Part shown: positions 20,279-58,880 of the stretch, in pieces
Layout: every line of letters starts with the position of its first letter
Numbering within the stretch: the stretch's first letter is position 1
NCBI GenBank assembly: GCA_023267535.1
Contig: JAHFNC010000004.1
Location: forward strand, 3,757-67,756
Source of the DNA: a bacterium
Lineage (GTDB): Bacteria > Patescibacteriota > Minisyncoccia > Phycocordibacterales > UBA5272
Reading direction: 5' to 3'
Length of the DNA: 64,000 nucleotides
Program-made: the position numbers and the translations under genes
Notes under the pieces: generated by a model
Told to the model about the DNA's origin: nothing
What the model saw: only the letters and a program-made list of their open reading frames with translations
The model's database searches: none

Positions 20279-20322
20279 TTATCCACAGTTGTTCTATTGC
20301 AGTAGAACAATCGTTCTAATAT
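20279..20322 (+). promoter_or_regulatory. lexA promoter/operator: DnaA-box consensus plus overlapping LexA (Cheo-type) palindromes
   Basis: TTATCCACA at 20279-20287; TGTTCTA-N6-TAGAACA (20290-20309) and GAAC-AATC-GTTC (20305-20316); TAATAT -10-like hexamer at 20317-20322; lexA ATG at 20329. Confidence 0.5.
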
Positions 20323-20328
20323 ACTGAA

Positions 20329-20895
20329 TTGATGAATGAGGAAGAAATTTTAATATCATTTTTTACGGAAAATAAAAGAATGCCAACATACGAAGAGATG
20401 AAAGGTCTCTTCGGTGTGGCTTCAAAAAACACTGTGGCTTTCAGAGTAAATAAATTATTAGAAAATGGTTTCTTGATTAAGAAAGGAAGTAAAATTGCTC
20501 TTGCTCAATCTGGCTCAGTTGTGAGATTGGGAACTGTTCAAGCTGGATTTCCAACTACTGCAGACGAAGATGTCGTATCCGAGTTATTATCACTTGATGA
20601 TTTTTTAATAGAAAGAAAGAGTTCAACATATATGTTGGAAGTGGTTGGTGAATCAATGAAAGATGCCGGAATAATTGAAGGCGACTTGGTTTTAGTAGAA
20701 AGAGGAAAGACTCCACGTCGTGGAGATATAGTTCTAGCACTTGTTGATAATGAATACACGCTGAAATATTTAGAAACAGAAAAAGGAAAACCAGTGCTTG
20801 TGCCAGCCAATAAATTATTTAAGAAAATCTATCCAAACCCAAACAAATTAAAAATCGAAGCAGTTTTAAAAGCAGTAATTAGAAAATATAGATAA
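20329..20895 (+). CDS. lexA: LexA repressor (S24 peptidase)
   Basis: 188 aa; N-terminal wHTH; C-terminal GESMKDAGIIEGDLVLVERG with Ser/Lys dyad. Confidence 0.85.
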   Translation: MMNEEEILISFFTENKRMPTYEEMKGLFGVASKNTVAFRVNKLLENGFLIKKGSKIALAQSGSVVRLGTVQAGFPTTADEDVVSELLSLDDFLIERKSSTYMLEVVGESMKDAGIIEGDLVLVERGKTPRRGDIVLALVDNEYTLKYLETEKGKPVLVPANKLFKKIYPNPNKLKIEAVLKAVIRKYR

Positions 20896-21045: not shown

Positions 21046-21477
21046 ATGTCACCATCACCACGCGCCATAATACAAATAAGCACAACAGGAAAGAATTTTT
21101 CTCGTATAAATTATAGTCGTCGCATGTATGCCGTCATTAGACGTTATACACCGGACGTGGCTGAGGGTAATATAAATGAATGCTTTGCTGATATAACCGG
21201 ACTTCGCACTTTCTTTAAAATGTCATACAAAGAATTGGCAGAAAAAATTCTTAAAGATTTAAATAAAGAAATTGGTGTGCAATTTACAATCAGAATTACT
21301 TCAATGAAAGCCTTTCAAAATGCAAAAACTAACAGTAGAAACTCCAAGAGTATTTCTACTTACAAAGAATTAAACAAACTTTTTGCCGGACTATCATTTG
21401 TTGAAGCCAAAAATCGTAAAAGCTTAATTAGTAGAAGAAGAAAATTTGCCGTACCATTTATTGGTAAGGTTGCATAA
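21046..21477 (+). pseudogene. dinB: Truncated Y-family DNA polymerase IV (DinB) fragment
   Basis: 143 aa ORF; ECFADITG corresponds to DinB DEAYLDVT; C-terminal RKFAVPFIGKVA corresponds to LAKIPGVGKV HhH; catalytic N-terminal palm and C-terminal little finger absent. Confidence 0.5.
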
Positions 21478-50543: not shown

Positions 50544-51305
50544 CTAATTACTAGAATTCTGATTCCTCCATTCATATAACACCACCGCCGTTGCTACTGA
50601 CGCATTCAAAGACTCACACAATGGATTTGTTTTGATTGATATCTTAAAATCACACATTTCAAGTGTTTTAAGTCTTATACCAGACCCCTCTTTACCTATA
50701 ACCAAAACTGTAGGACTATCAAATTTTGTTTTATTTAATTCTGTGTCACCGTCGCCAGCTAAACCATAAATCCAAAATTGTTTTTCCTTTAACTTTTCAA
50801 GTGTATTGTTTATATTTCCAATTCTGACAATTGGTATAGCAAAGTTCATGCCAGAAGCTGTCTTGATTACCGTTGTAGTTACTTGTGTTTGATCATGCTC
50901 AGGCATAAGAATTGCATCGGCTCCGAAAGCGACAGCACTACGAATTATAGCTCCGACATTATGAGGATCTTCTAATTCATCAAGCAACACGAAAAGTGGA
51001 TTACCCTCTTTGGTTTTTATTTTTTCTAAAATAAAATCTAAATCTGAATACAAAGATTTATTGTTAAGTAATGCACACACACCTTGGTGTAAAACTTCTT
51101 TCCCTGACATACTTTCTATCTCACTTCCTGTAACTACTTCATAAGAAATTTTATTACTCTGAACAAGGCTAATTATTTCTGGATTACTCTCTGATTGTTT
51201 GGTTAGATATAATTTTTCTATTATATGACTATTATCTCGCTTTTGAGCAAAAATAGCCTCTTTTAAAGGGTTTTTGCCACATAAATAGACTTTATTGGTG
51301 TTCAT
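50544..51305 (-). CDS. rlmB: SpoU/TrmH-family rRNA 2'-O-methyltransferase (RlmB-like)
   Basis: 253 aa; N-terminal substrate-binding domain plus SpoU methylase motifs. Confidence 0.8.
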   Translation of the reverse strand: MNTNKVYLCGKNPLKEAIFAQKRDNSHIIEKLYLTKQSESNPEIISLVQSNKISYEVVTGSEIESMSGKEVLHQGVCALLNNKSLYSDLDFILEKIKTKEGNPLFVLLDELEDPHNVGAIIRSAVAFGADAILMPEHDQTQVTTTVIKTASGMNFAIPIVRIGNINNTLEKLKEKQFWIYGLAGDGDTELNKTKFDSPTVLVIGKEGSGIRLKTLEMCDFKISIKTNPLCESLNASVATAVVLYEWRNQNSSN

Positions 51306-51321
51306 AGTGTGGATATTATAA

Positions 51322-51352
51322 CAAAAAATCCCCTATTTTGGGGATTTTTATA
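51322..51352. terminator. Rho-independent terminator
   Basis: aaatcccc-tatttt-ggggattt hairpin with flanking A/T runs. Confidence 0.7.
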
Positions 51353-51782: not shown

Positions 51783-51910
51783 AAATTTACAAATTTGCGT
51801 TTGTTATTAACTATTAAATACATTAGCAGGGACTACAAAAATTGTGGCCTAAGACCCGCTTATTTAATAATATATGAAAAATGGCTTTTTTATTGCAGTT
51901 ATCCCCAAAT

Positions 51911-52782: not shown

Positions 52783-53484
52783 CTAGAAAAAGGCTTCTGT
52801 ATAAATGTTTTCTTCAGAAATACCACCGTCCCTTAATCCCTTCCACATTTCACGAACAAAAGAAATTGACCCACAAATAAAAAATTCTTTATTTCTAATT
52901 TCGTTATTAATATGATTAATAATTTCTTTAGCATCTATCCTTCCCTTTATAAAAAAATTATCTAAATCACTCTCTTGTGTAATAAAATATTTAACCATAA
53001 AGTTATTATGTGAAGATGAAAAATAATCAAATTCATTTTTAAAAACAATATCTGAAATATTTTTATTACTATAAAATAAATACATATTTCTTTTAGAATT
53101 ATTATTTAAATGATGTGTAATCTGGCTTTTAAAAGGAGTGATTCCCATGCCTCCTGCTACAAATACTAAATCTGTTTCTTTATTTTCTGTATAAAAAAAT
53201 CCATACGGATTGGAAGAAACAACTTCGTCTCCAATTTTTAAATCATTCAATTTAGAAGAAAATTCTCCTACTTTTTTTATTGTTATGCTAAATGTATTAT
53301 CATCAATTTTATCTGACACACTATATGCTTTCCCCTCTTTGATTTCTGTGTCTGGAAAAAAAATAGTAATAAACTGCCCGGGAATAAAAGAGGTTTTTTC
53401 TTGACTATATAATTTAAGAGTAAAAATATTATTACCCCTATCTTCTTTATCTATTACTTTTAACTTTGTTTTATTTCCTTCCAT
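52783..53484 (-). CDS. Ferredoxin-NADP reductase-like flavoprotein (FAD/NAD(P)-binding oxidoreductase)
   Basis: 233 aa; FAD motif KAYSVS (RxYS-like), NAD motif GGMGITP. Confidence 0.7.
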   Translation of the reverse strand: MEGNKTKLKVIDKEDRGNNIFTLKLYSQEKTSFIPGQFITIFFPDTEIKEGKAYSVSDKIDDNTFSITIKKVGEFSSKLNDLKIGDEVVSSNPYGFFYTENKETDLVFVAGGMGITPFKSQITHHLNNNSKRNMYLFYSNKNISDIVFKNEFDYFSSSHNNFMVKYFITQESDLDNFFIKGRIDAKEIINHINNEIRNKEFFICGSISFVREMWKGLRDGGISEENIYTEAFF

Positions 53485-53905
53485 AATTTTCTTCGTAATC
53501 TTTTATTGCTTCACGTAATGCCAAATGACCAAGTACCGAGCAATGATATTTTCTATCGGGTAACCCTCCTAATCTATCAATAATAGCTTCTGGCGTAATG
53601 TGTTTAGCTTTAGAAATTTCCATACCGTCATTTTCTAATACCATTGTAGACATCATAGAAGTAGAAGCAATCGCCGAAGCACAACCAAATGTTCTCCATT
53701 TACATTCATAAATATTTTTCTTATCTTTGTCTATCTTTATCCAAACCACCATCATGTCTCCACAAGCTGGGCTTCCAACAATTCCAATACCATCGGCTTC
53801 GTAATTACTTTCATCTAAAAGAATGTTTCGCGGACTCAAAAAATGATCTTTAACAACGTCGCTGTATAACCAATTATTTACATCACAAATTTGTTTATCG
53901 TTCAT
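53471..53905 (-). CDS. iscU: Fe-S cluster assembly scaffold IscU/NifU-like
   Basis: GSPACGD ... CKWRTFGCASAIASTS ... three conserved Cys. Confidence 0.85.
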   Translation of the reverse strand: MNDKQICDVNNWLYSDVVKDHFLSPRNILLDESNYEADGIGIVGSPACGDMMVVWIKIDKDKKNIYECKWRTFGCASAIASTSMMSTMVLENDGMEISKAKHITPEAIIDRLGGLPDRKYHCSVLGHLALREAIKDYEENYGRK

Positions 53906-55214
53906 ATATTTTTAAAGTAAGAGCTGACATTTGTGTTAAATCTTCAACGATTTTAGGAAAAATATTGAGGACTCTATCTATATCTTCTTTAGTTGTATGT
54001 CGGCCAAAAGAAAATCTCAAACTTCCGTGAATAAGTTTTACATCTTGTCCGATAGCTAAAAGTACATATGATGGTTTCAAATCGTTTGAGGAACAAGCCG
54101 AACCAGTAGAAACTTCTATTCCTAAATTATCTAATTTAAGAAGCATTGACTCCCCTTCTATGTAGGGAACGGTGACATGCGTAATTGATGGAGATCTAAA
54201 TTCTAGAGGAACATTAATTAAAATATTTGGAATTAATTCCTCCAATTCCTCTACAAAATATTTTTGTAGACTTTTTAATCTTTCATATTCTTCTTTTCTA
54301 TTTTCTTGTGCTTTAGTGAGCGCTAAAGAAAATCCAAAAATATTGGCAATGCTTTCTGTCCCACTTCTTAGTCCCCTCTCCTGTCCACCACCGAAAACTA
54401 TTGGGTGTAATTTAATGTCATTTCTTTTATAAAGAAGACCAATACCAGCAGGCCCATAAATTTTAGAACTATTGATAGTCATCAAATCTACACCTAAATC
54501 TTTTACATCTAAAGAAAAAAGATTCGCCGCCTGACAAGCGTCTGTATGTATTAAAGGTTTAAATGGAGTTTCATTTTTTATTCTTTCAGATAATTCTTTT
54601 ATGGGCTGTATGGTTCCAATTTCATTGTTTACGTACATTACGGAAATTAATATTGTCTTTGTGGTAATTAGAGTTAAACATTCTTCTATTTTTATTCTGC
54701 CAAAATTATCAACTGGCATAAAGCTTATTTCAAACCCTTCTTTTTCTAATTGATTAACTGCTTCTATAATTGATTTGTGTTCAATAGAAGAAATAATTAT
54801 ATGATTCCCATTTTGACGATTAGCGCGAGCAAAACCTAAAATAGCTAAATTATTTGCTTCTGTCCCTCCGCTCGTGAAGATAATTTCATTATCGTTTGAA
54901 TTAATTATTTTTGAAATATCAATTCTTGCATTTTCAATTATTCTTTTTGCTTTTCTGCCACTAGTGTGAACAGAAGAAGGGTTGCTATAATCTAATCCAA
55001 AATACGGAAGCATTGTACGAAACACCTCTTTATCAATAGGAGTGCTTGCTGCATAATCTAAATATATTCTTCTATCAGCGACGCCAGACGAGAGAAGTGA
55101 GAAAGTATTCTTTTTCACTTCCGAGTCAAGGAGCTGAAAAGGTAAACGCTCCTTAGTAGCATCCTTGTGATTCTTATCTTGTTTAACTTTACCTGATTCC
55201 GCAATATTTAACAT
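53895..55214 (-). CDS. iscS: Cysteine desulfurase (class V aminotransferase, IscS/NifS-like)
   Basis: 439 aa; PLP-lysine region INSSKIYGPAGIG; SSVHTSG; active-site Cys near C-terminus STGSACSS. Confidence 0.85.
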   Translation of the reverse strand: MLNIAESGKVKQDKNHKDATKERLPFQLLDSEVKKNTFSLLSSGVADRRIYLDYAASTPIDKEVFRTMLPYFGLDYSNPSSVHTSGRKAKRIIENARIDISKIINSNDNEIIFTSGGTEANNLAILGFARANRQNGNHIIISSIEHKSIIEAVNQLEKEGFEISFMPVDNFGRIKIEECLTLITTKTILISVMYVNNEIGTIQPIKELSERIKNETPFKPLIHTDACQAANLFSLDVKDLGVDLMTINSSKIYGPAGIGLLYKRNDIKLHPIVFGGGQERGLRSGTESIANIFGFSLALTKAQENRKEEYERLKSLQKYFVEELEELIPNILINVPLEFRSPSITHVTVPYIEGESMLLKLDNLGIEVSTGSACSSNDLKPSYVLLAIGQDVKLIHGSLRFSFGRHTTKEDIDRVLNIFPKIVEDLTQMSALTLKIYER

Positions 55215-55875
55215 AATTTTGTAATCCCTTTTGAAAGGATGTTAATTCTTCTTCTGAGTAAGTAATCTTATTTTTAAATTGTGGGTTTAGAATTTTAGTT
55301 GAAACAAATTTTTGTAAATAATATTTTTTTGCACCCCTTATTTCTTCCCCTATTTCTAAAACATCAGATTCCGATACTAAAGATTTAATAAGAGTTGTTC
55401 TAAATTCATAATCTATAGGCGATGACAAAAGTAAATCAATACTTTGTCGTATTTTCTCGATATCGACCGGACGAGAAACAGTTTGGCTATATTTTGAAAG
55501 TGGAGATTTTATATCCATAGCAATATAATCAACAACACCTTCACTTATAGCTTTTTTAAGAACACTCGGATTTGTACCGTTTGAATCAAGCTTTACCAAA
55601 AATCCTAATTCTTTTATTTTTTTAATAAATGAAATTAAATCATTGTGCATTGTCGGTTCACCGCCGGTTATAACCACACCATCTAACAACCCAACTCTCG
55701 TTTTTAAAAAATCCATTACTTCTTCTTCGTTTATTCTAGTTTCCACTGTCTCATCGACCAATTCTGGATTATGACAATAAGGACAACGGAAGTTACATCC
55801 AATGGTGTATAAAATACAAGCTGTTTTTCCTGGATAATCAATTAGAGTAAATTTTTCTAATCCTCCGAATATCAT
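55189..55875 (-). CDS. nrdG: Anaerobic ribonucleoside-triphosphate reductase activating protein (radical SAM)
   Basis: CNFRCPYCHNPE radical-SAM CxxxCxxC motif; 4-nt overlap with nrdD. Confidence 0.85.
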   Translation of the reverse strand: MIFGGLEKFTLIDYPGKTACILYTIGCNFRCPYCHNPELVDETVETRINEEEVMDFLKTRVGLLDGVVITGGEPTMHNDLISFIKKIKELGFLVKLDSNGTNPSVLKKAISEGVVDYIAMDIKSPLSKYSQTVSRPVDIEKIRQSIDLLLSSPIDYEFRTTLIKSLVSESDVLEIGEEIRGAKKYYLQKFVSTKILNPQFKNKITYSEEELTSFQKGLQNYVKYCGIR

Positions 55876-58037
55876 TTTTGAATTACTAATGGAGACTCTA
55901 TTAATTTTGACTCAATAATATTGTGCTCATACATTTCTCGGCAATCAAATTCAGCTCGTTTACCTTCATTCCATTGACTCACTGGACGAATATAACCCAC
56001 TATTCTTGAATAAACTTCGCATTCATTATTGCAAGTTGGACATAAATGTTTTTCACCATTTATATACCCATGAGAAGGACAGACGCTGAAAGTTGGGGTT
56101 AGCGTAAAGTATGGCAATTTAAAATTCTCACAAATCTTTTTGACAAGCACAGGAACAGATGATGGGTCAGCAACTCTTTCTCCTAAGAAAAGATGCATAA
56201 CTGTTCCACCGGTGTATTTTGTTTGCAAACCATCTTGAATTTCTAAAGTTTCAAAAATATCTTTTGAAAAATTAACTGGTAAATGAGAAGAATTAGTGTA
56301 ATAAGGATTGGCTTTTTTATTATTATAATCGTCTTCATTAGCAACAAGTATGTCAGGGAAAGCTTTTTTGTCATTTAATGCAAAACGATAGGCAGTCCCC
56401 TCTCCTGGTGTTGCTTCTAGATTAAATAAATTATCTGTCTCTTTTTGATATTGCACTAATCTTTCACGCATAAAATCCAATACGTCTGAAGCAAAAGCTC
56501 TCCCTTTTACAGTACCAATATTTTCTCCAAGTAAATTAAGAGAAGCTTCGTTGGTTCCAATCAAGCCAATGGTAGAGAAATGATTTTTCCAATATTCACC
56601 ATAGGACTCTTTTATTTTTCTTAAATAGAATTTTGTATATGGATATAGATTGGCGTTAGTTAATCTTTCTAACATTTTTCTTTTAATCTCCAAGCTTTCT
56701 TTGGCAATATCCATTTGCAAAGCCAGCGAGTCGTAAAATTCTTTTTTAGCTTTTCTTATGTCTTTCGGAAATTTCTTGCTAGCTTTGTAAGCAAGACGTG
56801 GAAGATTTATGGTTACCACACCAACTGAGCCAGTTAAAGCGTTTGCACCAAACAATCCTCCTCCACGCCTATCTAATTCAGCGACGTCTAATCTCAAACG
56901 ACAACACATTGATCTTGTGTCTTCCGGCTTCATATCTGAACTAACAAAATTACTAAAATACGGAATACCATATTTAGCAGTTATTTCCCAAAGACCTTTT
57001 AGGTTAGGATTATTCCATTCAAAATCTTTGGTGACATTCACTGTTGGAATTGGAAAAGTAAAGACTCTACCTGAGGCGTCCCCTTCATACATAACTTCAA
57101 AGAGAGCTTTGTTAAACATGTTCATCTCTCTTTGAAATTCTTTGTATGTTTCAACTTGAGGTTTACCGCCGATAATTACCTTTGTGTCTTTAAAATTTGC
57201 CGAGGGTGTTAAATCAAGAGTGATGTTTGAAAATGGAGTTTGAAATCCAACTCTGGTTGGTACATTCATATTAAAGATGAATTCTTGAAGCCCTTGCTTA
57301 ACCTCATCAAAGGTAAGTCCATCATAACGAATAAACGGTGCAAGAAGTGTATCAAAATTAGAAAAAGCAATGGCGCCAGCTGCCTCACCTTGAAGCGTGT
57401 ACATAAAGTTGACTGCTTGCCCCAAAGCGGTGCGAAAATGCTTAGGAGGGGCAGATTCTACCTTACCAACTACCCCCTTGAACCCTTCAGTAAGTAAATC
57501 CATTAAATCCCAACCAACACAGTAAACAGAAATAAGACCTAAATCGTGAATATGTATATCTGTTTTCTCATAGGCATCTCTTATTTCCTTGGGATATATC
57601 TTATTTAACCAGTAAGTCTTACTAATTTCACCAAAAACATAGTTATTTAACCCTTGCAAGGAATATTCCATGTTACTGTTTTCTTTCACTTGCCAATCAC
57701 TTCTATCCAAATAATTATCAACCATGCCAAGTGACATAGAAGTAGCAAAAGCGCGAAGTTCAGCATGTTGCTTTCTGTATAGAATATAGGCTTTAGCTGT
57801 TTCTTTGTATTGAGAACGCATCAAAACTAACTCCACCACATCTTGAATATCTTCAACAGTTGGCTCGTTTCCGACTATATTTTTGTCCACTATAGAAATA
57901 ACCTTTTTTGATAGTATTTCTGCCTCCTTCGCATCAAATTCTCCAGTAGCTTTACCTGCTTTGACTATTGCTATGGTAATTTTTTTATAGTCAAAGGCTA
58001 CTTTGGCACCATTTCTTTTGATAATGAATTTTGGCAT
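55872..58037 (-). CDS. nrdD: Anaerobic (class III) ribonucleoside-triphosphate reductase
   Basis: 721 aa; N-terminal ATP-cone; C-terminal glycyl-radical region RIVGYIRPVSQWNEGKRAEF and Cys-rich zinc site CPTCNNEC. Confidence 0.9.
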   Translation of the reverse strand: MPKFIIKRNGAKVAFDYKKITIAIVKAGKATGEFDAKEAEILSKKVISIVDKNIVGNEPTVEDIQDVVELVLMRSQYKETAKAYILYRKQHAELRAFATSMSLGMVDNYLDRSDWQVKENSNMEYSLQGLNNYVFGEISKTYWLNKIYPKEIRDAYEKTDIHIHDLGLISVYCVGWDLMDLLTEGFKGVVGKVESAPPKHFRTALGQAVNFMYTLQGEAAGAIAFSNFDTLLAPFIRYDGLTFDEVKQGLQEFIFNMNVPTRVGFQTPFSNITLDLTPSANFKDTKVIIGGKPQVETYKEFQREMNMFNKALFEVMYEGDASGRVFTFPIPTVNVTKDFEWNNPNLKGLWEITAKYGIPYFSNFVSSDMKPEDTRSMCCRLRLDVAELDRRGGGLFGANALTGSVGVVTINLPRLAYKASKKFPKDIRKAKKEFYDSLALQMDIAKESLEIKRKMLERLTNANLYPYTKFYLRKIKESYGEYWKNHFSTIGLIGTNEASLNLLGENIGTVKGRAFASDVLDFMRERLVQYQKETDNLFNLEATPGEGTAYRFALNDKKAFPDILVANEDDYNNKKANPYYTNSSHLPVNFSKDIFETLEIQDGLQTKYTGGTVMHLFLGERVADPSSVPVLVKKICENFKLPYFTLTPTFSVCPSHGYINGEKHLCPTCNNECEVYSRIVGYIRPVSQWNEGKRAEFDCREMYEHNIIESKLIESPLVIQK

Positions 58038-58089
58038 ATTTTTGTGGTTTTTTGTTAATTTTGGTGGTTAATATTTTCATCTTAAGCCC

Positions 58090-58182
58090 TGTTGATAAGA
58101 TGCGCAATAGAACAACTGTGGATATAAAAAGTCCTTATTTTACAAGGTTTTTTTGGAAAATAAAATATTTTAGTTATCCACA
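58090..58182. promoter_or_regulatory. DnaA-box cluster upstream of nrdDG
   Basis: TGTTGATAA (58090-58098, rc TTATCAACA), TGTGGATAT (58117-58125, rc ATATCCACA), TTATCCACA (58174-58182); followed by an AT-rich stretch of about 150 bp. Confidence 0.45.
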
Positions 58183-58385
58183 GTTCCGTTTTTAAAATGA
58201 TTGTGTTTTAGCAAAAATTGTAAATCTCTTTTTCCATATTTTTGATTGAATTTTTATAAAAAAATAATTTAATTTTTAAAATTATAAATTTATATATGCA
58301 AATGATTCGCATTTGTATCGACACTAGACTTTATTTCAAAAAAAAGTTAGATTAATTAAAGTTTAGTTCTTATGAGGTCATTCCA

Positions 58386-58880
58386 ATGACACAACTGATT
58401 ACAAAAATAAACATTGCTCATCTAGCGTCGCTTGCAAAAATTCCCAAAAAAGAATTACCAATTTCTTCACTCAAGAATAAATCAGCTCCCCTTCCATTTG
58501 ACGCAGAAAAAAGAGAGTCTGTCATCCGTGCACTTTTTCGTGTAAGAAATTTTTGCACTGAAGAGTTAGGAAGAGGAACTTTAATCTTTAATGAAAAAAT
58601 GTTGAACATCGGACTGCAATTCGCAAATTTATCACTTCATCATCTCAAACAAAACCAAAATGAGGATGATATTCTTCTTGAAAATTTTTTGGATGAATAT
58701 AAATACATACTTAAGAACTTGCGAATGATTGATGTGGAAAAAGTAAGTGACGCTATCCCCTTCTGGAAAACAGGTGCGAGCCGCGCAGAATTTAGGCGCA
58801 GCGCAAATGTTTCTGTTGGCGGTAAAGCACATCCGACTTTTCTTCTTTTTCTTTTACCACGCACATTACAAGAGCTGTAA
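58386..58880 (+). CDS. hypothetical protein
   Basis: 164 aa ORF. Confidence 0.4.
   Translation: MTQLITKINIAHLASLAKIPKKELPISSLKNKSAPLPFDAEKRESVIRALFRVRNFCTEELGRGTLIFNEKMLNIGLQFANLSLHHLKQNQNEDDILLENFLDEYKYILKNLRMIDVEKVSDAIPFWKTGASRAEFRRSANVSVGGKAHPTFLLFLLPRTLQEL

Follow-up and report, generated by a model that had tools for sequence, protein, structure and literature searches.

A DnaA-box-type element in the nrdDG, lexA and dnaB promoters of Patescibacteria

Regulation of ribonucleotide reductase genes by DnaA, invoked in an earlier note on the DNA analysed here, is indeed documented in other bacteria. In E. coli, DnaA regulates nrdAB via boxes located just upstream of the promoter together with a DnaA-ATP-specific box that represses, the DnaA-ATP level setting expression, and it also co-regulates uvrB and recN with LexA (PMC8203912). 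The uvrB and recN promoter regions each combine DnaA boxes with LexA operators (Wurihan et al. 2018, PMC6015884). More recently, ChIP-seq has found DnaA bound upstream of the E. coli nrdDG operon, where the site is a double box, TTAAGAACA-gg-TTATCCACA; the study also states that binding in vivo almost always needs two boxes 2–3 bp apart and that the mechanism by which DnaA activates transcription is poorly understood (Stringer et al. 2024, PMC11317965). The sequence TTATCCACA is the high-affinity DnaA box across phyla, being the box of most of those studied, and TCCCCA is the weak W-box of Caulobacter (PMC4285127). The literature searched contained nothing on such boxes in Patescibacteria or CPR.

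The locus described here, the region upstream of the nrdDG operon of a patescibacterium, resembles each of these systems in some respects. With E. coli nrdAB it shares boxes of consensus or near-consensus sequence just upstream of a ribonucleotide reductase promoter, and also a weaker box that could repress. Unlike nrdAB, which encodes a class Ia enzyme and has an upstream double box with a 3 bp gap, the patescibacterial locus encodes a class III enzyme and has a single phased box with an inverted box 48 nt away. With the E. coli nrdDG ChIP-seq site it has in common both the operon and the extended box TTATCCACAG, although the E. coli site is double (PMC11317965). The uvrB and recN promoters offer a parallel for the joint presence of DnaA boxes and LexA operators, but here it is the promoter of lexA itself that is putatively co-occupied, and in one class of promoters, that with the short gap, box and LexA half-site directly adjoin each other, in the register of an operator. 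Finally, the alternation of A and C at position 7 of the box is also found in the G- and W-boxes (TGATCCACA and TCCCCA, respectively) of Caulobacter crescentus, where DnaA is an activator of cell-cycle and nucleotide genes and single boxes occur near replication-related promoters. The W-boxes, however, are weak sites defined inside oriC, whereas the TCCCCA versions described below are full 9-mers at promoters.

Patescibacteria are an uncultivated group whose very small genomes encode few regulators and in which hardly any experimental genetics has been done, and a phased DnaA-type box ahead of nrdDG, dnaB and lexA would be among the first readable parts of their regulatory logic. It suggests a link of the replication initiator to dNTP supply, to helicase supply and to the SOS repressor, and its natural 10-bp spacing variants make up a testable set of sites for how DnaA activates transcription. 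Set against what was already known, namely that in E. coli DnaA controls ribonucleotide reductase genes, nrdDG among them, the new elements are a phylum-wide instance, two additional putative targets (lexA and dnaB) and a phasing rule, which extend known biology rather than overturning it.

The nrdDG upstream region and its boxes

The DNA analysed (hereafter the window) is a 64-kb stretch of a metagenomic contig, the relevant features of which are collected in Table 1. The interval 58038–58385 is intergenic and separates nrdD from a divergently transcribed 164-aa ORF. The closest relatives of the NrdD, LexA and DnaB proteins are found in Paceibacteria-type genomes (Nomurabacteria, Taylorbacteria and others). 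The match of the LexA-like protein to TIGR00498 is full-length, with a score just under the cut-off. On the minus strand, nrdD and nrdG are followed by genes encoding a cysteine desulfurase, NifU and an FAD/NAD-binding reductase (52783–58037 for the whole string), an arrangement that is also found in L165, L166 and L168; the genes after nrdDG may represent a dedicated Fe–S and electron supply for the activase.

Table 1. Features of the nrdDG and lexA regions, in window coordinates
Feature	Position	Strand	Description
nrdDG operon	55189..58037	minus	regulated unit
nrdD	58037..55872	minus	Pfam NRDD and ATP-cone; NCBIfam NrdD
nrdG	55875..55189	minus	Pfam radical SAM; NCBIfam NrdG2
Predicted nrdD core promoter	58079..58107	minus	-35 TTGCGC (58107..58102), 17-nt spacer, -10 TAAGAT (58084..58079)
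Third box-like 9-mer	58090-58098	minus	plus-strand letters TGTTGATAA; minus TTATCAACA; 1 mismatch
21-mer	58104-58124	minus	plus-strand letters GCAATAGAACAACTGTGGATA; minus TATCCACAGTTGTTCTATTGC
Proximal DnaA-type box	58117-58125	minus	plus-strand letters TGTGGATAT; minus ATATCCACA; 1 mismatch
Distal DnaA-type box	58174-58182	plus	TTATCCACA, exact; inverted relative to proximal box
AT-rich tract	58190..58385	none	upstream DNA of the divergent 164-aa ORF; context, outside the element
Divergent 164-aa ORF	58386-58880	plus	without family matches
lexA DnaA-type box	20279..20287	plus	TTATCCACA, exact; centre at about -49
lexA lone half-site	20290-20296	plus	TGTTCTA, preceded by GT
lexA -35	20297-20302	plus	TTGCAG
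lexA LexA-type palindrome	20303-20318	plus	TAGAACAATCGTTCTA, between -35 and -10
lexA -10	20320-20325	plus	TATACT; ATG at 20332 only 6 nt further
lexA	20332..20895	plus	S24 peptidase domain and TIGR00498 match

The earlier note had described three 9-mers resembling the DnaA box, two of them in inverted orientation, an adjoining AT-rich tract and a 21-mer shared with the lexA promoter in the same orientation relative to each downstream gene (nrdD on the minus strand, lexA on the plus); all of these are present. These 9-mers and that of lexA are asymmetric sequences lying within the one to two mismatches of TTATCCACA expected of a DnaA box, those at 58174 and 20279 being exact and those at 58117 and 58090 differing at one position. 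The statistics obtained within the window are modest, and the strong evidence is comparative. A count of the 9-mer, made here in the window, gave 4 copies of the exact box against 0.58 expected, and 27 boxes with up to one mismatch against 25.2 ± 4.8 by chance, with no overall excess of the latter. Of 400 simulations with an order-2 Markov model, only 4 produced three boxes inside 95 bp. Elsewhere in the window, two other box-like 9-mers are intergenic: ATATCCACA at 51308–51316 (minus strand), between a TATAAT and the ATG of a methyltransferase gene, and TTATCCCCA at 51899–51907 (plus strand), in antisense orientation upstream of a 138-aa ORF.

Read in the sense direction, the nrdD promoter takes the form ATATCCACA-GTTGTTCTA-TTGCGC-(17 nt)-TAAGAT and the lexA promoter TTATCCACA-GTTGTTCTA-TTGCAG-(17 nt)-TATACT, the same layout, with the box ending 9 nt before the -35 (predicted, at nrdD) in both. 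A consensus promoter scan with a threshold of 9 matching positions did not report the hexamers of either gene, which are weak by that measure (the predicted nrdD -35 and -10 match the consensus at 7 of 12 positions by our own count); the nrdD core promoter was called because a homologous TTGCGA-17-GATAAT is kept in relatives. Starts of transcription are predicted near 58072 (minus strand) for nrdD and near 20332 (plus strand) for lexA. Relative to the predicted nrdD start, the proximal nrdD box is centred at about -49 and the distal box at about -106, with 48 nt between them.

The 21-mer at 58104–58124 is the exact reverse complement of 20280–20300. Further copies were sought as the earlier note had proposed, and none was found in the window even at 3 mismatches (2 copies against 0 expected), both copies lying in promoters. 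The sequence is a composite, neither a dispersed repeat nor a single site, being made up of 8 nt of the box, GT, the LexA-type half-site TGTTCTA and the TTGC of the -35. That it might be a dispersed repeat or a general promoter element was considered and rejected, on account of its 2 copies and of the near-confinement of the strict box-gap-TTGC pattern to nrdD and lexA. For a gap of 9 nt to be identical in two promoters of one genome requires either a common function or a copied promoter module; a common function could be that of a LexA half-site, perhaps in competition with the factor that binds the box.

Conservation in nrdD, lexA and dnaB promoters

A close relative of the nrdDG locus is found in the same sample (L164, NrdD 90% identical). 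Here the proximal box is identical and both inverted boxes are kept together with the 48-nt gap between them, whilst the remaining intergenic spacer has diverged. A block of 28 nt that covers the 21-mer (TTTTTATATCCACAGTTGTTCTATTGCG) is invariant, and at the distal box a block of 13 nt (AACTGTGGATAAC) is kept between diverged flanks. Conserved in this one close relative, the distal inverted box is thus under selection in the window's lineage, where it is probably a transcription-factor site of the nrdDG promoter; it was not seen in more distant relatives. The third box, by comparison, sits within the -35/-10 spacer (at about -26 to -18), is degenerate in L164, where it reads TTATTAACA, and in L030 (TCTGTCAAC), and corresponds in the alignment to another conserved promoter element, TTGCGAAAC-N3-TGAAAC, of other nrdD promoters. 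For these reasons it was not counted as a reliable DnaA site, and its identity as one is doubtful. In other Paceibacteria (L005, L007, L013, L046 and others), a further conserved nrdD-promoter element, TTGCGAAAC-N3-TGAAACTAG, extends over the -35 and spacer and is sometimes contained within a 26-bp palindrome.

Across the phylum as a whole, a sense-strand box with at most one mismatch is present at -130 to -51 of nrdD in 26 of 50 Patescibacteria loci, against 0.63 expected, and an antisense box is present in that interval in none of the 50. The core TCC[A/C]C occurs at the site of the nrdD box in 42 loci (41 of the 52 tabulated, with L047 added). When all hexamers in the 150 nt before nrdD were counted without bias, TCCCCA, ATCCAC and TCCACA came out as the three most enriched, above the words of the -35 and -10. 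When the loci are aligned on the core, information is limited to nine positions, T-T-A-T-C-C-[A/C]-C-A, with the flanks at background save for a preference for G immediately 3' of the box, as in sites bound in E. coli. The 9-mer itself is thus under purifying selection in orthologous promoters, and its TCCACA and TCCCCA variants fall within the range bound by DnaA. For the DnaA proteins characterised so far, TTATCCCCA, which is found in about a third of relatives, is a weak variant. In most relatives there is one box, and it tracks the nrdD promoter whatever the neighbouring genes. Amongst nrdD loci of other phyla such a box was found in 1 of 27, an Opitutales genome (Verrucomicrobia, L060), in which the 400 nt ahead of nrdD contain four DnaA-type boxes, all on the sense strand (890–1282); this suggests that the link between DnaA and nrdD recurs outside Patescibacteria and E. 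coli.

The distance from box to -35 at nrdD is 8, 9 or 10 nt in 4, 11 and 7 loci, respectively, 19 nt in 2 and 28 nt in 1 (the values for L036, 9 nt, and L039, 28 nt, were read directly from the sequences). At lexA, 6 loci have a gap of 9 nt, 9 loci one of 19 nt and a single locus one of 20 nt. No intermediate gaps were seen in the nrdD or lexA promoters examined, from which it follows that the gap classes differ by steps of one helical turn. In about 1 Mb of loci, the strict pattern TATCCMCA-N8-13-TTGC is found almost only in nrdD and lexA promoters. Judged from these alignments, the proximal box is a promoter element of DnaA-box sequence that is conserved phylum-wide, strand-specific and helically phased.

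The lexA promoters of close relatives (L084–L103, LexA 74–82% identical) contain TTATCC[A/C]CA in all 16 distinct cases, and a further relative, L098, has a two-mismatch box, TTGTACACA, at the same place. On the 3' side of the box these promoters conserve TGTTCTA-TTGnnn-TAGAACAnnTGTTCTA-TAnnnT. Six of them have 2 nt between the box and TGTTCTA, nine have 12 nt and one has 13 nt, and this shift by one helical turn implies that the box is separate from the LexA half-site and that its rotational position matters. In a Jorgensenbacteria genome (L012), a lexA-like ORF likewise has TTATCCACA upstream. The lexA operator itself is a perfect GAAC-N4-GTTC palindrome with a third, lone half-site (TGTTCTA) located 6 nt upstream and facing outward; all three half-sites are kept in every close relative (L084–L103).

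The dnaB gene of the same genome, which lies just outside the window, has a sense-strand TTATCCCCA at -77 to -69, and dnaB genes of three other genomes (DnaB 82–83% identical) have ATATCCACA, TTATCCACA or TTATCCACT, also sense, at -75 to -85, in upstream regions that are otherwise unalignable. A box in four of four promoters is far beyond chance, given a background of approximately 1.7e-4 boxes per strand-nucleotide. In all four, a second box-like 9-mer follows the first after 0–2 nt. The distances from the dnaB box to the likely -10 (52, 53 and 63 nt, the -10 assignments being tentative) extend the series of approximately 10-nt steps formed by nrdD and lexA (32, 42 and 51 nt).

Candidate factors and the replication-origin alternative

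We consider it likely, with some room for doubt, that transcription of nrdDG, lexA and dnaB is regulated by DnaA via the phased 9-mer, which is also the most economical explanation. Binding by DnaA and the sign of its effect are what we infer from the motif, its position, strand, phasing and conservation, and the set of genes concerned. DnaA would occupy the 9-mer, always on the same helical face and 9 nt ahead of the -35 (plus multiples of 10 nt elsewhere), and once bound would modulate the recruitment of RNA polymerase, so coupling synthesis of the class III (anaerobic) ribonucleotide reductase to the status of replication initiation. The same module would drive lexA, with a related module before dnaB, to give a small replication-linked regulon. 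That the box keeps to one strand and to helically phased positions ahead of the core promoter (-49, -59, -69 and beyond) favours an activator-like role in which polymerase is contacted, and we lean towards activation. Class I activators such as CRP contact RNA polymerase from upstream, at phased sites. The box within the nrdD spacer (58090), though poorly conserved, could add repression at high DnaA levels, as at E. coli nrdAB.

The earlier proposal of DnaA control at nrdDG is largely upheld, with strong comparative support: the proximal box recurs in relatives and is found at lexA and dnaB too. Only two of the three boxes are conserved, however, and the AT-rich tract is ordinary upstream DNA. 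The genes involved (nrdDG, dnaB and lexA) are of the kind found in known DnaA regulons. Against DnaA stands the single nature of the phased sites at nrdD and lexA, where the pair of boxes 2–3 bp apart is lacking (dnaB has its adjacent box-like 9-mer at 0–2 bp), although the need for a double box in E. coli may not hold elsewhere. A tblastn search with E. coli DnaA domains III–IV gave no match in the window or in loci L001–L169, and no DnaA domain appears in the Pfam gene tables of the dnaB-neighbourhood loci.

On a rival reading, some other patescibacterial transcription factor dedicated to DNA-metabolism genes (nrdDG, lexA, dnaB) binds a 9-mer that only looks like a DnaA box. We regard this as unlikely, though not negligible. 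Dedicated activators typically have single, phased sites of fixed strand a short way before the -35, many of the sites read TCCCCA instead of TCCACA, and in E. coli DnaA is rarely found on single boxes in vivo (PMC11317965). The conserved block nevertheless matches the near-universal DnaA box exactly in length, in asymmetry and in sequence, its documented A/C alternative included, a second factor of equal specificity would collide with DnaA, and the ribonucleotide reductase, replication and SOS genes that carry the box fit known DnaA regulons. Less probable still is that the 21-mer serves LexA and not DnaA, with nrdDG being an SOS gene repressed through TGTTCTA and CCACA-GT-TGTTCTA a degenerate operator. 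The half-site is the right half of the lexA operator TAGAACAnnTGTTCTA and is kept in all lexA promoters and at nrdD of both the window and L164 (a near-identical version of GT-TGTTCTA is present in the L008 nrdD promoter), and in the short-gap class the 2-nt distance brings CCACA to the place of GAACA, so that 10 of 14 operator positions match. Ribonucleotide reductases were also reportedly placed in the patescibacterial SOS network by Sanchez-Osuna and colleagues in 2017. However, nrdD in the window has one half-site, TGTTCTA, where lexA has a perfect operator (20303–20318), and GAAC-N4-GTTC with at most one mismatch is found upstream of nrdD in 3 of 52 loci, none of them the window, against about 4 expected, which led us to reject canonical LexA control of nrdD. 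The box also remains conserved in lexA promoters of the long-gap class, where 12 nt separate it from the half-site, and in nrdD and dnaB promoters of other lineages that have no GTTC half-site. LexA may therefore supplement a factor that binds the box but cannot replace it.

The earlier note had offered a further alternative, that the boxes and the AT-rich tract belong to a chromosomal replication origin, and we find this very improbable. Three box-like 9-mers in 95 bp beside approximately 200 bp of 81% A+T DNA do have the look of an origin, but dnaA and dnaN are absent from the 64-kb window and from the contig stretches recovered beyond both its ends (extension in both directions found DnaB and no DnaA), the GC skew does not change sign at 58 kb and the AT-rich tract contains no direct repeats of the unwinding-element type. 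The skew check that had been proposed, carried out on the window and the overlapping locus L001, gave the same sign on both sides of 58 kb and hence no origin signal. Skew is positive over roughly the first 50 kb and negative over the remainder of the window, and this sole switch is a cumulative maximum with convergent genes; it is terminus-like, or could simply reflect gene strand bias. Direct reading of the sequence beside the boxes revealed no DnaA-trio run. The combination of box cluster and unwinding element is thus missing, as is that of a skew sign change with dnaA/dnaN, and with two boxes conserved here and mostly one in relatives, following the nrdD promoter whatever its neighbours, the boxes are unlikely to be parts of an origin.

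Returning to DnaA, a fuller scheme, which we regard as conceivable but rather unlikely, joins several features: an activator box used throughout the Patescibacteria, phased so as to contact polymerase, a minimal replication-coupled regulon and a hybrid of box and LexA site. In this scheme, the DnaA-type box would stand 9, 19 or 28 nt upstream of the -35, and the regulon would comprise the class III ribonucleotide reductase, the DnaB helicase and the SOS repressor. At lexA and nrdDG of the window's lineage, the box would form one unit with a LexA half-site placed as in an operator (CCACA-GT-TGTTCTA), and the initiator and LexA would compete or cooperate on the hybrid element (CCACAGTTGTTCTA).

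Flanking sequences and other promoter features

The A+T content of the tract at 58190–58385 is 81%, rising to 91.5% at 58230–58300, compared with 66% for the whole window. Its description as unwinding-like does not survive the lack of unwinding-element repeats, and comparison with L164 shows conservation limited to short blocks, which are most simply explained as a promoter or operator that serves the divergent ORF. Among the few such blocks is an imperfect palindrome, TGCAAATGATTCGCA, at 58297–58311, which may be an operator or promoter of that 164-aa ORF.

Between the two inverted boxes (58126–58156) lies an inverted repeat of A-tract and T-tract, AAAAAGTCCTT...AAGGTTTTTTT, that is kept in L164 and L030. 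A hairpin or terminator between the boxes was rejected on the grounds that the RNA folds no better than shuffled sequence. Also discarded were a plus-strand promoter, TTTACA-16-TAAAAT (58139–58166), that would fire into the distal box and whose -10 is lost in L164, and a small ORF in the spacer, which is not conserved.

NrdR boxes comprise two 16-bp palindromes (consensus acaCwAtATaTwGtgt) located approximately 31–32 bp apart upstream of nrd genes, a consensus that is said to go back to Rodionov and Gelfand in 2005. With this consensus, no NrdR box was found in 58038–58386 at up to 4 mismatches, nor was the ATAGAT-N4-ATCTAT variant of other Paceibacteria found there, and the window contains no NrdR-like gene. 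Classical NrdR boxes are present in the Saccharibacteria loci L081 and L083. In other Paceibacteria (L016, L024, L041, L043 and others), two conserved 16-bp palindromes, ATAGATGGTCATCTAT, lie 31 bp apart upstream of nrdD; the spacing of this pair is NrdR-like, the sequence not classically so.

Directly after lexA is a 143-aa ORF (21046–21477) that matches only an internal part of the Y-family polymerases (DinB/UmuC); it may be only a fragment, or else a homologue of very short length. At lexA (20320–20334), a SpoU-type methyltransferase gene (51305–51325, minus strand) and dnaB (L170, 5769–5800), the -10 is located only 6–9 nt before the ATG, and for this reason the mRNAs of all three are probably leaderless.
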